DNA of 64,000 bases from Saccostrea echinata (Eukaryota). Positions 33,878 through 43,021 of this stretch are shown here, piece after piece (within the stretch, counting starts at the first letter, position 1; each line of letters opens with the position of its first letter). The DNA is taken from the NCBI RefSeq assembly GCF_033153115.1, contig NW_026889761.1, positions 24,428,001-24,492,000 of the forward strand, read 5' to 3'. A program made the position numbers and the translations under genes. The notes under the pieces were generated by a model. The model saw nothing but the letters and a program-made list of their open reading frames with translations. It was not told the DNA's origin and ran no database searches.

Positions 33878-36800
33878 ATATTAGGGATTATGACTGAACA
33901 TCCCCCCCCCCCTCCCCCAAGTGTGAAACATGCATCAAAAGATATCCTTTTAAAAAATTTCTGTCTCACAGTGACTGACCTGAATTAGTAATAGCTACTA
34001 CAGGGACACAGAGGGGTTAATAAAAGGCCATATTATTTAACAATGCAGCAACAAAATGTGAAACTGTCAGGGCTAACACACCATTACGAGAAAAAGCAAA
34101 AGCAAAATGTACAATGAACCTTATAAACTCATAAACACACTCAAACATAACAGACACTAACACACACACACATATATATTTATACATAAGTTTGAGATGT
34201 ATAATGTCCAAACGCTGATATTTTCCACACAGTCCATCCCTTAACCTTTGTTCTTTCTTCAGAGTCCTGTCAGTCTGGTATACCTCTCCTCCTGTTTAAA
34301 ACAACCAATCATATTCACTAAAGGTTTTTTATCCCTCCAATTAGGAATAGTACCAACAGTGATTCAATTTGGAGAAATAGCAGCAAAATATGAATATTAT
34401 ATCGAGAATTTTCTAATAATAGGATTAAAATGAAATAAATTAAATTCCATGCATGACAAGACCTTAAACTAATATATATCATGCCTCCCAATTATGCGGG
34501 TTATGCATTTTTTTTTTCAGCAACAGCTGCAACATTAATTCCCATACTAACAACCAAATAAAGCATATTATTGTTTAAATATCTCTCAATTTCATGTTTT
34601 TCAAGATGTAAGCCATTTGGAATATACTGCAGAATAATTAACATTCATGTGGGGCTAGTTTTCCTGGATTGATTTAATTTAACATGTTTGTTATTTTCTC
34701 ATACCAGGTATATTAAAGAAAAAACTCTGAAACTAAAGGGTTTTTTTTCAATTCATGGAGGATGTAAATTTGTGGATGAGAGGCACCCAGAAGTCCACAT
34801 ATATTGAGCCACCATGAAATGTAGTGATACCAGAGTATACTGTTTACAACACATCTCACCAAAAACTAGTCTACTTCTGGAAATCAAAGTTTTTTGAAAA
34901 TTTGTATGTTTCATACTTAGTGATTTACAATGTCAATGCAGTACTTATTGAGAAGTTTAAAGAGGAATTTCTGTTTTCAAAATTTTATAAAAATCAATGG
35001 GTTTTTTTGCATTATCAGCACCAGTTGTATAAGGGGGGAAAACAATGATCATATTCATCTTAAGCATGAAAAATGGTAGTTTTATAAAGAAATGTAGCAA
35101 TTCTGTGAAATGAATGTGTTGTCAAATCCTGTTCTTAAATAATTGAGACATTTGTGTATGGACTCAAGTGACCTACTGAGAAAGTTTGAGCATGGATTTA
35201 GGTGACCTACTGAGAAAGTTTGAGCATGGATTCAGGTGACCTACTGAGAAAGTTTGAGTATGGAGTAAAAACTTCTGGTCAAGCCAATCTTCTTCTGTCC
35301 TGCAGGTTCTTCTAAGACTGGTGTAAAAGGCCAGTCCACCTCTTTGTCTGTTAACAAAGAACAAAGGAAGGTTAATAACAAAAGAATGTTCACACTTTAT
35401 CTAATGGCAAAGAAATGTGAAATTTCAAACAGAAAAAAAGAAAAATATGTCTTATATCTTACTTTTATGTTAGGCAAAAGTTCATCACTTTCTTGGAACT
35501 CCAGATGAAACATGAATGCTCTTGAACACTGAATCCAGGTTAGCGTAACTCCCTGTTATCAAAGAATATAAAGAGATTAACAGAATTAAAGTACTTAAAG
35601 ATATGGAATCTCAGAGTGAATTGAGTAGAGCTTGTATATTACCCTCACTTCTACAGTGGGCTGCTGGCAATGTTTTCTTCAAATTTTTCCATAACAAGAA
35701 GAACTGCTTTTAAACATTCGATGAAGACCAGCCTTGTCCCTTGTCTGTTAACACAGAATGTGTACAGATCAGTTAATAAAGGTACAAAGAATTCAACAGG
35801 TGAGAAATAGGGATATCAATTTACACAACGCAAGTAGCAGATCTAACTTCTTACCGTCTCCTGCAGGCCATAGTCAATGCTGGCTCTCAGTACTTTTAGC
35901 TGGTGTTCAACTCTTCCTAACCCAGAGAGTGGGAGACTGCCATCAAGGCTTCTGTGAACATAGATAGTTTAGAGTCAAATATGTGTTCTAATTAGACAGA
36001 AAGAGAAAACAGAAATCATGATAGTGCAACAAATGCAGCTCGTTTCTTACCACTTTGACTAATAAATGGCTGCTGGCATAATGGACACCCTGTACCCTGG
36101 CAATGTACTCCTCCTTACTGCATGGGGTGTCCAGCTCTTGGTACTCTTGCTAGCAGGTGACGTAATCTTCCAGACCTTTGACAGTGAAAGGGTCTGGTTG
36201 TCCTTGTTTCTTTAAGACAGAGATTTTACATATAAGAGGTTCCAGTCATAATCATGTGTGAAAGAGCACAAGCAATGGATTTAGCACATTTGATTTCTAT
36301 CTTACCCTTTCTTCTATGGCTGGATGCTGTGGATCCCTCTTCCCTGAACTCCTCCTAAAAAGTGATAGATGTGTTCTCTGCCACAAAATTGAAGCTTGCC
36401 TAACCATTATTCTGTAAATAAAGAAAGTCAAGAGGTGTAATGTGTGTCCTAATTGGACTGACTTAGAATGAAACATAGCAATCAAAAAATGAAGCATATG
36501 TGGCTTGTTTCTTACCATTTTGGCCAATGTTGGCCTGTTGGTTTAGTGGATACCCTGTATCCTGGCAATGGTCTCCTCCTCCTTGTTTAGTTCTCCTCTT
36601 CCTTGTGTGGTCCTCTTCTTCATTGTGCGATCTTCTTCTTCAGTGTATGATCTTATTCTTCATTGAGTGGTTGTCCTCAATTTGGCATCTGTCCATACCC
36701 GCTGTCACCTGAAAAATTGTTGGGAAACAGTTTAATTAAGCTCTTAGTACTTTAGTTGTACGATTCTGAGATTTAAGATCAAAGGAGGCTCATTCTACAT

Positions 36801-39044
36801 CAGTTAAGATGAGCATATAAAATGGACCCCATGTGTGAAAGAGCACAAACCATGGATTCAGTACATTTAATTGGTATCTTACCCTTTCTTCTATGACTGG
36901 CTGCTGTGGATCTCGGTTCCCTGGACTCCTCATTGTGAACGATGGAAGTGTCCTCTACCATGAGATCAAAGCTTTTCTAACCATTATTCTGTTAATATAC
37001 AGAGTCCAGATGTCAAATGAGTGTCCTAATTGGACTGACAAAGAATAAAACAAAGCAATCAAAAAATGTTACATATGCAGCTTGTTTCTTACCAGTTTGG
37101 CCAATGTTGGCCTGTTGGTTTAGTGGATACCCTGCATCCTGGCAATGGTCTCCTATTCCTTGTGTGGTCTTCCTCTTCCTTGAGTGGTCATCCTCTTCCT
37201 TGTGTGGTCCTCTCCTCCTTGTGTGGTCCTCTTCTTCTTTGTGTAGTCTTCTTCTTTGTATGGTCCTCCTCTTCCTTGTGTGGTCCTCTTCTTCATTGTG
37301 CGATCTTCTTCTTCAGTGTATGATCCTATTCTTCATTGATTGGTTGTCCTCAATTTGGCATCTGTCCATACCTGCTGTCACCTGAAAAATTTCCCGGAAA
37401 CAGTTTAATTAAGCTCTTAGTACTTTAGTTGTATGATTCTGAGATTTTAGATCAAAGGAGGCTCATTCTACATCAGTTCAGATGAGCACATAAAATGGAC
37501 CCCATGTGTGAAAGAGCACAAACTATGGATTCAGTACATTTAATTTGTATCTTACCTTTTCTTCTGGCTGCTGTGGATCTTGGTTCCCTGGACTCCTCGT
37601 TGTGAATGATGGCAGTGTCCTCTACCATGTGATCAAAGCTTTTCTAACCATTATTCTGTTAATATACTGAGACCAGAGGTCAAATGTGTGTCCTAATTGG
37701 ACTGACAAAGAATAAAACATAGCAATCAAAAAATGTTACATATGCAGCTTGCTTCTTACCACTTTGGCCAATGTTGGCCTGTTGGTTTAGTGGATACCCT
37801 GTATCCTGGCAATGGTCTCCTCTACCTTGTGTGGTCCTCCTCTTCCTTGTGTGGTCCTCTTCTTCCTTGAGCAGTCCTCTCCTCTTCATGTGGTCCTCTT
37901 CTTTTCTGTGTAGTCGTCTTCTTCTCTGTGTAGTCTTCTTCTTCTCTGTGTGGTCCTCTTCTTTATGTTGTCCTCTTCTTCACTGCGTGCTCCTTCATGT
38001 TCATATGCAGCTTGTTTCTTACCACTTTGGTCAATGTTGGCTTGTCAACATAGTGGATACCCTGTATTTTGGTAATGGACTCCTCATCATTGTGTGGTCG
38101 TCCACAATTTGGCATCTATCTATACCTGCTGTCATCTAAAAGTTTAGTTACAGTTTATTTTAGCTTGGTTAGATACTGAAATTCAAGATCAAAGAGAGCT
38201 CAGTTTACAACAGTTAAGATTAGCAGAAGAAATGGAATCAGTGATATGTACTTTACCCTTTATTCAGTGGTTGGCTTCAGTTGATCCCAACTCCCTGGAC
38301 TCTTCTTCACAAGTAGTGTTGTCTTTTTTGTATCGGGATTGAGAATAACTATAATTCTGTTAACATACAGAGTCAAGAGTCAAACTAGTACTAGTACCAG
38401 TCTTAAATAAAGTGAAAATATAAAATCAAAATCTAAATTGCAAAAAACGCTGCCCGTTTCTTACCACTTTGGCCAATGTTGACATAGTGGATACCCTGTG
38501 TCCTGGCAGTGGTCTCCTCTTCCTTGTGTTGTATCTGCTGCCATCTGTCCATCCCTCCTTGTGCCCTTAATAATGGTAAAAACTGACACAGGATTAATAC
38601 AGTTCCAAAACAATGGAAAAAGTACCTTTTAATCACCATTCTTAAACAAAAACATGTGAAAATTACATATTTAGGAAAGACACAAACATTTATAAATGAA
38701 AAAAGCAAAAAGGTTTATGTTAGTAATGTAAGTAAGAAAGGGAAGGGGAAGGGACAGGAAACAAAAAATACATGCAAAGGAAAAAAATACAGCTCACCTT
38801 GTCTCTCTGGCTTATAAGATCAAAATACAACCTTTTCTTGGGCTCATTGCATACCACTGGCTCCATTCTGTCTAAATTACATTTGTAAAATGTTTAAATA
38901 AACAAATAAATCTAACTTCTAAAATAAAATGTTTCATAGTACTTTATACGTTAAACACAGAACAAATGAAATTTATTTTGTGTTTATTCTAACCTAATTA
39001 ACTAACACATACATTAACTTATACACTTTATATGTAAAGAATTA

Positions 39045-42200: not shown

Positions 42201-43021
42201 AGATATAAAATCCCACACACAAACAGGTTGTTTTTCAAACACAGATGCCCAGTCCATGATAAATTATTTAAATGTTGGTACCCCCTAAAAGACCTTAACA
42301 AGGAGTGCACATAAAAAAAGAAAGCCCTTGCACCAGCTGTTCAGTTGTTATGGCTAATATTTAAGCTTTTCAAAAGAAAATCAAATCCAAGGTCATGATA
42401 TCTAAAATAATTCAAAGGTCAAAATCATGAGGTAAAAATGTAGGCCATCAGAGAAAGGGATTTTGTCACAAGAAAAACAAATGTGAAATATGGTAGCTGT
42501 TGAAGCAATCATTCAGGTGTTATGGACAAGATTAAAGTTTTTCAAAAGTAAGCCACTCTTGGTCAAGAGGTCAAAAATATTGATATCCTAAGAAAGGGCT
42601 TGTCACAAGAAATATGAAATGTGAAAGCCCTAACACATACTTCTCAAAGTTAGGGTCAAGGTTAAAGTTTCTGCAGACAAACAAACAGACAGATGGACAG
42701 ACAAAAAAGTGATTTGCCCTGAATCTCAGATTATGGGGACCTTAACAGAGAAGATTTGTGTCTTACCCTCACTTCTAGGTTAGGCCACTGTTCATCCTTA
42801 CTCCTGGCACTCTAGTTGAATCATGACAGTCTGCTCTGAAACATGGTTTCCAGTCTAACTCTCTACCTGTTCAAACAGAATGTGAAGAGGTAAACTCAGA
42901 CTTCATCAAGTGAAAAAGTTCTTGAATCTCTCAGAGTGTATGGAGTAAAGATTGTGACTTAACCCTTTTTAGATCTCTGTACTCTTGCTTACACTCATCT
43001 CAATCTTAGGATTGGCTATCA

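Follow-up and report, generated by a model that had tools for sequence, protein, structure and literature searches.

A spliced non-coding exon array lies between complementary hairpins in a dispersed, multicopy gene of the oyster Saccostrea echinata

Introduction

Host genes of snoRNAs and miRNAs and repeat-built lncRNAs have numerous exons in which the splice sites are kept while the sequence is free to change. In the primate core-duplicon families, such as NPIP and GOLGA, dispersed duplications whose ends are ragged centre on a lineage-restricted transcribed gene. Three further kinds of system are relevant here. RNA pairing over long distances joins elements R2-R5 of ATE1 across 30 kb (PMC7797038), and in the PCCR catalogue exons lying within a loop reportedly have a lower inclusion, and pairs of this kind flank circRNAs (PMC8052449). 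Folding back of the poly(A) tail suppresses NMD (PMC2689704). Lastly, in the White Cap Tam3L macro-transposon of maize a host gene is carried along by a pair of linked DNA-transposon copies, with an outer target duplication (bioRxiv 10.1101/082677), and IS3EU/GingerRoot transposons have TA..TA termini and usually a 6-bp TSD (PMC10045372; also PMC12730594).

We analysed a locus of the oyster Saccostrea echinata that can be compared with all of these. The window, that is, the whole stretch of DNA analysed, comprises 64,000 nucleotides (contig NW_026889761.1, positions 24,428,001 to 24,492,000); coordinates are those of the window and features are on its minus strand unless stated otherwise. As in ATE1 and the PCCR catalogue, short conserved complementary elements 20-30 kb apart bracket exons, and their complementarity is conserved on one strand. 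Unlike those, the oyster elements are conserved hairpin loops, present as 2-3 by 2-6 copies, situated 3' of a stop codon and bracketing ~25 non-coding exons, with a function that is predicted. The two linked transposon ends and outer target duplication of one oyster copy, C28, recall White Cap Tam3L; the oyster case differs from it in the animal genome, the IS3EU-type ends, the 6-bp duplication and the copies, which are dispersed rather than tandem, and the arrangement is complete in 1/15 copies tested. The flanking element resembles IS3EU/GingerRoot transposons in its TAC..GTA termini, terminal inverted repeats and 6-bp duplications, but it encodes no transposase. In contrast to snoRNA and miRNA host genes, the oyster gene has an intact ORF, and its array yielded no hosted intronic RNA. 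It shares with NPIP and GOLGA a lineage-restricted transcribed gene and dispersed duplications with ragged ends, whereas at least the youngest oyster copies were moved by transposon ends. No description of the oyster array or gene system was found in the literature searched, which covered few subscription journals.

Results

An array of spliced exons with conserved splice dinucleotides

The original prediction that the window contains about 25 paralogous exons proved accurate. The exons are ~100 nt long and on the minus strand; 23 have both ends defined (median 101 nt, median intron 109 nt) and three have one end missing or outside, namely exon 37760, whose acceptor side is deleted, an exon starting at 35347, whose donor is deleted in the window copy only, and a satellite exon ending at 42993. 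The window copy also carries a deletion spanning an intron. The donor 6-mer G+GTAAG occurs 15 times on the minus strand between 35.6 and 43 kb (1.1 expected, P 1e-12). The exon classes that had been proposed needed adjustment. By similarity, class B has seven members instead of six, three of them with the exact end motif; class A, also thought to have six, has three exact and two near members with 42043 as a looser paralogue; class C has two exact and one near. The third donor of class D, placed at 42964, lies at 42993 in contigs. Classes A, C and D can be aligned with one another above shuffled controls, indicating that most exons descend from one ~200-bp exon-plus-intron unit, and class B is linked to them weakly.

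The array exons are spliced. Nine canonical joints are present in public contigs of runs X1-X3, and 7/9 are also present in X5, which is a second study with another organism code, so that the junctions anticipated by the prediction exist in two studies. The contigs of these four runs are marked 'RNA?', none of them being on record as RNA, and the joints examined are the 15 listed of 192; no skipping or back-splice joint is among these 15. The satellite exon (42993..44478; a 31-bp satellite in 46.8 copies, closed in all frames) is spliced at 42993 in X1, X2, X3 and X5 and is absent from an older subfamily of copies. Contig joints support exons 42866-42767, 42141-42043 and 41934-41858 (41858..42866), and by arithmetic the length of X2 record 8 is compatible with all three in one contig. 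Joints and pieces of contigs cover exons 41273-41033, where a 74-nt intron is retained in the contig listed, 40943-40842, 40732-40635, 40539-40438 and 40328-40224 (40224..41273). For exons 38871-38798, 38565-38465, 38356-38257 and 38135-38023 (38023..38871), the evidence comes from X1 record 2 and X2 record 7, with others predicted by paralogy, and the intron between the first two is retained in the contigs listed. The alternating class A/B exons (36051..37760), consisting of donor 37760, 37655-37556, 37381-37093, 36988-36883, 36708-36516, 36411-36306 and 36209-36051, have two joints in contigs and are otherwise predicted; joints 36411/36516 and 36209/36306 are present in all four runs. Exons 35951-35855, 35744-35643, 35552-35463, the one starting at 35347 and 34291-34246 (34246..35951) are predicted from splice sites and conservation, with no joint among the 15 listed.

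Splice sites in the array were claimed to be kept while the reading frame is not, and comparison of paralogous copies bears this out. Splice dinucleotides sustained 10 changes against 32.6 expected (P 4e-6); on terminal branches alone the conservation is not significant (7 vs 10.9, P 0.15). Substitutions per site amount to 0.50 in exon bodies and 0.49 in introns, and indels divisible by three to 11/62 in exons and 13/91 in introns. Closure in all frames affects 14/23 exons against 14.5 expected from shuffling, hence the exons behave as random non-coding sequence. Exons 42768, 42043, 36883 and 36515, described as stopped in all frames, are indeed closed, and this holds in every copy recovered (10/10, 11/11, 13/13 and 12/12). 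There is no consistent codon periodicity in array exons across copies, and no paralogous copy examined restores a reading frame through the array. The purine richness that had been noted stands (mean purine content of the 23 defined exons, 0.61), whereas the ESE-like repeats show no more conservation than the introns do. These results support the conclusion that the array exons are non-coding and that their splice dinucleotides are under purifying selection.

It is very improbable that the exons once coded and have decayed, or that they are carried along neutrally in a duplicated segment. The lost donor and the deletion across an intron in the window copy would be expected of such remnants, as would the two closest copies, where donors are kept in 40/45 cases and other GT in 335/359, i.e. 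no better; the splice-site conservation over all copies, the four exons closed in every recovered copy and the lack of consistent codon periodicity argue the other way, together with full-length RefSeq relatives of the upstream ORF (below) that end at the same tail. For pseudogenised coding exons in particular the copies give no support: there is no consistent codon periodicity and no excess of in-frame indels, and no open frame in older copies. Mirtrons and snoRNAs in the array were also rejected: its 17 short introns fold no better than shuffles (z -2.0 to +1.8) and contain no conserved structured small RNA.

A conserved ORF upstream of the array

Upstream of the array lies an ORF of 205 aa. 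Its first coding exon (55712..55783) carries the ATG, 24 codons, a basic RRSxRxRxxPxWF motif and a phase-0 donor; it has 20 matches in the genome and its N-terminus is shared with RefSeq P0001-P0003. The second (49898..50443) has 181 codons plus stop, is Pro/Glu-rich with a hydrophobic C-terminal tail, and is 69% identical to P0001. The ORF is open in 27/29 copies with 0 stops against ~29 expected, the dN/dS of its second exon is 0.51-0.71, and the three full-length relatives P0001-P0003 (211-217 aa) stop at the same tail. Judged by these sequence comparisons, the ORF is protein-coding, conserved and selected. Protein relatives were found in Saccostrea only, with a family identity of 45-69%. 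Their RefSeq labels are 'magnetosome-associated protein MamJ-like', 'MICAL-like protein 1' and uncharacterized proteins, and the 'MamJ-like' and 'MICAL-like' labels look like low-complexity matches. The 205-aa protein looks disordered; no Pfam family, Atlas match or longer homologue was found for it, and no PDB sequence match for the N-terminal exon. The N-terminal basic motif may resemble the nucleosome-binding motifs of CENP-C and retrotransposon integrases, a likeness for which a literature search gave no support.

The array is enclosed in a ~50-kb gene unit (17728..64000, running past the window edge) that occurs at ~28 dispersed loci in the Saccostrea echinata genome. Past the window, the promoter and first non-coding exon lie at G000:C12 ~24494150-24494720 and the left transposon end of this copy at C12:24496226. 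The order is ORF, A hairpins, exons, B hairpins, on the same strand, in 20/24 stretches, and the gap between ORF and array goes down to <1 kb in copy C9d. The first strong, well-conserved donor 3' of the stop codon is that of exon 45768..45864 (intron start 45767; 13/13 copies), whose upstream end is provisional. In every copy examined the array is 3' of the conserved ORF and shares its strand, and in every copy followed from one end to the other it is flanked on both sides by hairpins with complementary loops. This arrangement, within a multicopy gene that is dispersed, gives no support to a stand-alone architectural lncRNA as originally suggested. This gene context (ORF, dispersal and hairpins) had been missed in the original prediction.

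We infer that the ORF and the tail form one transcript. It is distinctly unlikely that they are two transcription units, a short mRNA ending after A and a separate spliced lncRNA that bears B and pairs in trans, given that strand and order are constant in 20/24 stretches, that ORF and array come so close in C9d and that no second conserved promoter was recognised. Conserved poly(A)-like hexamers between stop and tail (49400/49394, 49305 and 47503) would nevertheless suit two units, as would the lack of a contig or joint linking the ORF exon to the tail among the 15 joints listed of 192. The bin with the ORF exon has depth in X3 only, the empty bin in the other runs being uninformative.

Complementary hairpins on either side of the array

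Copies have 2-3 A hairpins 3' of the stop codon; B hairpins lie 3' of the array, three in the window and 2-6 per locus across copies. Hairpin A1 (49470..49550; loop 12-mer 49501-49512; z -5.4) has double-sided changes in 5/22 pairs, and its sense strand forms G-U pairs. Hairpin A2 (48065..48150; loop 12-mer 48102-48113; z -5.5) scores -5.8 on the sense strand vs -0.8 on the antisense. The covariation of A stems was matched in 0/500 shuffles, demonstrating that the A hairpins are RNA structure. Hairpin B1 (28380..28510; z -8.8 sense vs -2.1 antisense) has a loop 12-mer at 28450-28461 that is complementary to the A loops; B2 (27290..27425; -42.9 kcal/mol) and B3 (25465..25605; -42.0 kcal/mol) have theirs at 27364-27375 and 25541-25552. 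Folding of B is confined to the sense strand (-10.6 vs -0.15); the hairpin consists of a ~45-bp stem with upper arms near-invariant in 57 distinct copies; no pair in B stems changed on both sides. A and B hairpins are within the top five conserved 80-nt windows of the gene. Rfam matches at 29.2, 31.4, 33.7 and 50.1 kb are all under the gathering score, and those at 29.2-33.7 kb are within insertions private to the window copy.

An exact, perfectly complementary and near-invariant 12-mer is present in 41/49 A hairpins and 50/59 B hairpins, and the complementary loops are identical across copies that are ~25-30% diverged. Within 30 kb, the A 3' strand pairs best with the three B hairpins (-34.6, -33.9 and -32.8 kcal/mol), compared with -28.6 for the next best and a median of -9.9 kcal/mol. 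The predicted unpaired fraction is 76-82% for A loops and 25-54% for B loops. Since co-folding favours A and B as two separate hairpins, A-B pairing could take place only as a loop-loop kiss, and we infer that the loops do pair. The loops vary too little between copies for a compensatory change between A and B to have been seen; G-U is retained in a few variants on one side, and others break a pair. The complementarity could also be inherited, because B resembles an inverted copy of A.

Two other uses of the hairpins were considered. B hairpins, and perhaps A, might be lineage-specific small-RNA precursors, with the spliced exons as a disposable scaffold and the A loop as target or processing regulator, which we regard as unlikely. 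The near-invariant B arms and the 2-6 hairpins per locus are reminiscent of miRNA clusters, but the B loop is long (~40 nt) and partly invariant, the most invariant stretch extending into it, and A stems vary with compensation while A loops do not, the opposite of what a miRNA shows. Host genes typically keep their splice sites while their exons are unconstrained, and the array has this pattern; nonetheless, its short introns fold like shuffles and none of the A and B hairpins had an Rfam match (E up to 1). An architectural RNA, which extends the original suggestion, is of low probability; here transcripts with 2-3 A and three B sticky loops would bind one another, also between the ~28 loci, and build networks or nuclear foci, with splicing loading the proteins. 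Multivalent complementary loops that are identical in diverged copies, A loops that are largely unpaired and a repeat-built tail with a satellite exon would all fit such a role; less compatible with it are the unconstrained sequence of the array exons and an intact, selected ORF in the gene, provided that ORF and tail are linked.

Transposon ends and dispersal of the gene unit

Copy C28 is a 58,335-bp composite bounded by the outer ends of two IS3EU-type elements and one 6-bp target duplication, and is the only one of the 15 copies tested with both target duplication and inverted ends. Five other weak duplication/inverted-end pairs among these copies look like chance or internal palindromes and were rejected; in copy C54 the target duplication matches at 5 of 6 positions and the adjoining end is altered. 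The window copy, C28 and C9a start at the same terminal base in three different flanks. The window also holds the inner remnant of the right-hand IS3EU-type element (17728..18320, no strand assigned), which is 97.7-97.9% identical to the C28 copy; its outer end is intact in C28 and lost in the window copy. The flanking element is 1.5-2 kb long, its TAC..GTA termini being placed in the terminal inverted repeats, and perfect 6-bp duplications surround three solo insertions of it as well as the C28 composite. Inspection of 7 ORFs of at least 120 aa in loci spanning the C28 unit revealed no IS3EU-type DDE transposase; the element is therefore considered non-autonomous and classed as IS3EU-type only. 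The sharp 5' boundary is not a native element end but a TA-rich site with different insertions in different copies.

Discussion

We tentatively propose, at somewhat less than an even chance, that the exons are the tail of a mobile multicopy protein gene in which an A-B clamp loops out the array and switches the mRNA form. The A and B hairpins would pair loop-to-loop and clamp the array in a loop of 21-24 kb, thereby switching the mRNA between one form that is prone to decay and another that is stable. With the loop open, ~25 junctions downstream of the stop codon would make the mRNA an NMD target or cause it to be retained; with the loop closed, skipping or circularisation of the array, or a fold that returns the 3' end to the vicinity of the stop, would leave a stable mRNA. 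Each splice site would matter because transcription and processing may depend on the dense donors and exon-junction complexes to get across 25 kb of AT-rich DNA and reach the B hairpins. A wider formulation, which we hold to be doubtful, is a transposon-mobilised family with its own RNA clamp, made of multivalent kissing hairpins 21-24 kb apart around ~25 sequence-free exons, where the array would be only a splicing-dependent fuse setting decay, skipping, circles or cross-locus multimerisation.

With ~28 copies of ~25 neutral exons, the family constitutes a natural experiment on whether splicing itself, and not exon sequence, is selected, and the copies provide a direct statistic in the roughly 70% deficit of changes at splice dinucleotides. 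The two complementary 12-mers form a precise, mutable RNA pair with which long-range pairing can be tested as a switch for NMD, skipping or circularisation. Finally, C28 is a case in which an entire 58-kb multi-exon gene of an animal, promoter included, was moved by DNA-transposon ends, which is a route to dispersed gene families.

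The exon array is spliced and lacks a reading frame

The original prediction described about 25 paralogous exons without a reading frame, and both features were recovered. Between 35.6 and 43 kb the minus strand carries a dense run of small exons, with 15 strong donor 6-mers compared to 1.1 expected. In total, 23 exons had both ends set (median 101 nts, median intron 109 nts) and 3 additional exons were partly defined. Exon lengths occupy all three phases (8, 9 and 6 exons), 14 of the 23 exons are closed in all frames (14.5 from shuffling), and the joined exons carry 32-47 stops per frame with a longest stop-free run of 93 codons. 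Classes A, C and D, three of the exon types, are mutually alignable, so most of the array arose through tandem duplication of a unit made up of one exon and its intron. The 20-bp purine repeats of class B exons (36593-37994) are present in 4 to about 9 copies; their period shifts the frame, consistent with the absence of a coding role. A 31-bp satellite within an exon (43024-44478) resembles by eye the end of a class D exon and is missing from the older subfamily; it is a young expansion of an exonic satellite. Segments 28888-29761, 30493-33876 and 39045-39249 are insertions in the window copy relative to most other copies.

Splicing was assessed in contigs of four public sequencing runs (X1, X2, X3 and X5), presumed to be RNA and representing at most three samples and two studies. 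Among the 15 of 192 joints listed, nine with canonical minus-strand ends fell at predicted sites; all nine were present in X1, X2 and X3 and seven in X5. Most contig pieces over exons showed 0-2 differences from the window per 100-200 letters, indicating that the expressed copies are close to the window copy. Two small introns were retained in the contigs listed. Three segments are strongly conserved without a strong fold: 35241-35320, 38661-38740, inside an intron retained in contigs, and 45741-45820, spanning the first donor after the stop. We regard the exon array and its splicing as real.

The array lies within a dispersed gene unit that holds a coding ORF

A 371-nt array piece gave 94 genome matches over 10 contigs, and 50-kb stretches around eight of these showed 20-33 kb of chained alignment with the window, with identities of 94-95% (copies C28 and C9a, named by contig), 88-89% (C56, C54, C30a) and about 77% (C1, C2, C70). 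The gene unit comprises a promoter and first exon just outside the window, followed on the minus strand by exons of 24 codons (55783-55712) and 181 codons (50443-49898). Matches to most of the length of the latter occur at 28 loci spread over 13 contigs, and C5 and C36 carry a more distant group; these are lower bounds, and C70 and C126 may represent a single locus that was assembled twice. The 181-codon exon is open in 27 of 29 fetched copies (C5 and C36 were not recovered as open), with lengths that are all multiples of three, no internal stops compared to about 29 expected, and a dN/dS of 0.51 for internal branches and 0.71 for terminal ones. The protein carries no known domain. The homologues found were all RefSeq records from two Saccostrea species, so that at least one species besides S. 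echinata carries the family; some records may derive from the S. echinata genome and would then not be independent. Array relatives lay downstream of the ORF in 10 of 10 further copies checked. Of the proposed architectural lncRNA, the splicing and the non-coding exons stand, but the array lies downstream of a selected ORF in a dispersed gene unit.

In the C15 copy (L077:945-1550; G000:C15:10933945), both coding exons are fused without the intron, reflecting either intron loss or the ancestral state, while promoter, hairpins and spliced tail are kept. In the distant C5/C36 subgroup (L089, L090, L145-L148), ORF-like segments are repeated internally, and neither A or B hairpins nor an exon array were found in the 20 kb downstream.

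Transposon ends point to how some copies were dispersed. The TAC..GTA ends of a 1.5-2 kb foldback element occur in exact form 554 times in 923 Mb, and three of its solo insertions show 6-bp duplications; these ends and duplications match the IS3EU hallmarks given in PMC10045372. The unit in the C28 copy measures 58,335 bp; its limits are the outer ends of two of these elements, and a single perfect 6-bp duplication flanks it. Three copies (window, C28 and C9a) share an identical terminal start base within three unrelated flanks. The window's right-hand element is broken off at 17728, and no intact pair of ends was found in the other copies tested beyond C28. A related foldback family with identical terminal 10 bases lies at the 5' boundary of C30a (C30 near 8075100-8075600). 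An ORF at 17064-17960 (+), presumably Tc1/mariner-like, has a weak HTH_28 match and its 3' part enters the truncated right-hand end. A broken tyrosine-recombinase element (58550-64000, +), which we take to be Crypton-like, is inserted in the first intron of three copies (window, C28 and C9a); Pfam gave no significant match to it, and an inverted-repeat insertion at about 59850-63453 splits it in the window copy.

Splice sites are conserved within the array

Changes per site were counted by per-column parsimony over 6-14 copies, using only those sites whose majority base is that of the window. Exon bodies and introns changed alike (0.50 and 0.49), whereas acceptor dinucleotides sustained 6 changes vs 16.9 expected and donor dinucleotides 4 vs 15.7 (together, P 3.6e-6), as anticipated if splicing itself is selected. 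Indels divisible by three showed no exon excess (11/62 in exons, 13/91 in introns). On terminal branches alone the deficit was not significant (7 vs 10.9), and donors in the two closest copies were retained no better than other GT; individual copies may therefore be decaying. Decay of the array as a whole, to which these two results would conform, is very improbable given the deficit over all branches. That the array serves as a small-RNA host is unlikely; a search for hosted snoRNAs or mirtrons in it found none.

Complementary hairpins flank the array

When 80-nt windows were ranked by how closely they match the ~77% copies, three hairpins came within the top five. Hairpin A1 lies 350 nts after the stop codon (z -5.4) and A2 1.4 kb beyond it (z -5.5). 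Across 32 sequences, 97.9% of cells in the A stems pair, and both partners have changed in 5 of 22 pairs; relatedness of the sequences inflates the shuffle test of these changes. The sense strand also holds G-U pairs. These two-sided changes and sense-strand G-U pairs show that the A hairpins are RNA structures. Three B hairpins are sited beyond the array. B1 has a z of -8.8 in sense vs -2.1 in antisense, and the B alignment folds at -10.6 vs -0.15, with no two-sided pair changes. Neither A nor B matched Rfam. Each B hairpin begins at a conserved donor-like site (28504, 27418, 25595, minus strand), which pairs with a branch-point-like motif to form part of the basal stem; none of these sites is followed by a conserved acceptor.

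A 12-mer in the A loops is perfectly complementary to one on the 5' side of the B loops; the window contains it twice on the A side and three times on the B side, and at no other place. The exact 12-mer occurs in 41 of the 49 A hairpins and in 50 of the 59 B hairpins. In 20 of 24 stretches the elements follow the order ORF-A-exons-B, the exceptions being two without B in the fetched span and the C5 and C36 stretches, without hairpin and array. All 40 scored A and 40 scored B matches lay at loci also matching ORF or promoter. Co-folding favours separate hairpins, and A-B contact would therefore be a loop-loop kiss; no compensatory change was seen between the loops.

A possible role for the tail

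Fixed strand and order, the position of the first strong and well-conserved donor past the stop codon (45767), and complementary loops on one strand point to ORF and tail forming a single transcript. The same loops could serve two transcripts pairing in trans, or RNA networks across molecules from the dispersed copies; we consider the former improbable and the latter equally so. The single-transcript reading, in which A-B pairing loops out the array and affects NMD, skipping or circles, is our tentative preference, held at somewhat below an even chance. It would place about 25 junctions after the stop codon, and junctions downstream of a stop are the standard NMD trigger. A looped-out array would favour skipping or circles by analogy with human long-range RNA pairs (PMC7797038, PMC8052449), and fold-back of the tail may blunt NMD, as 3' UTR fold-back can (PMC2689704). 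Selection on every splice site fits a need to process the entire tail; in addition, m6A is excluded by short exons (PMC9780246).

Each ingredient, long-range RNA pairing, macro-transposition (10.1101/082677) and exons with free sequence, has a precedent. No description of the gene family or of the combination was found in the literature searched, which largely excluded subscription journals.
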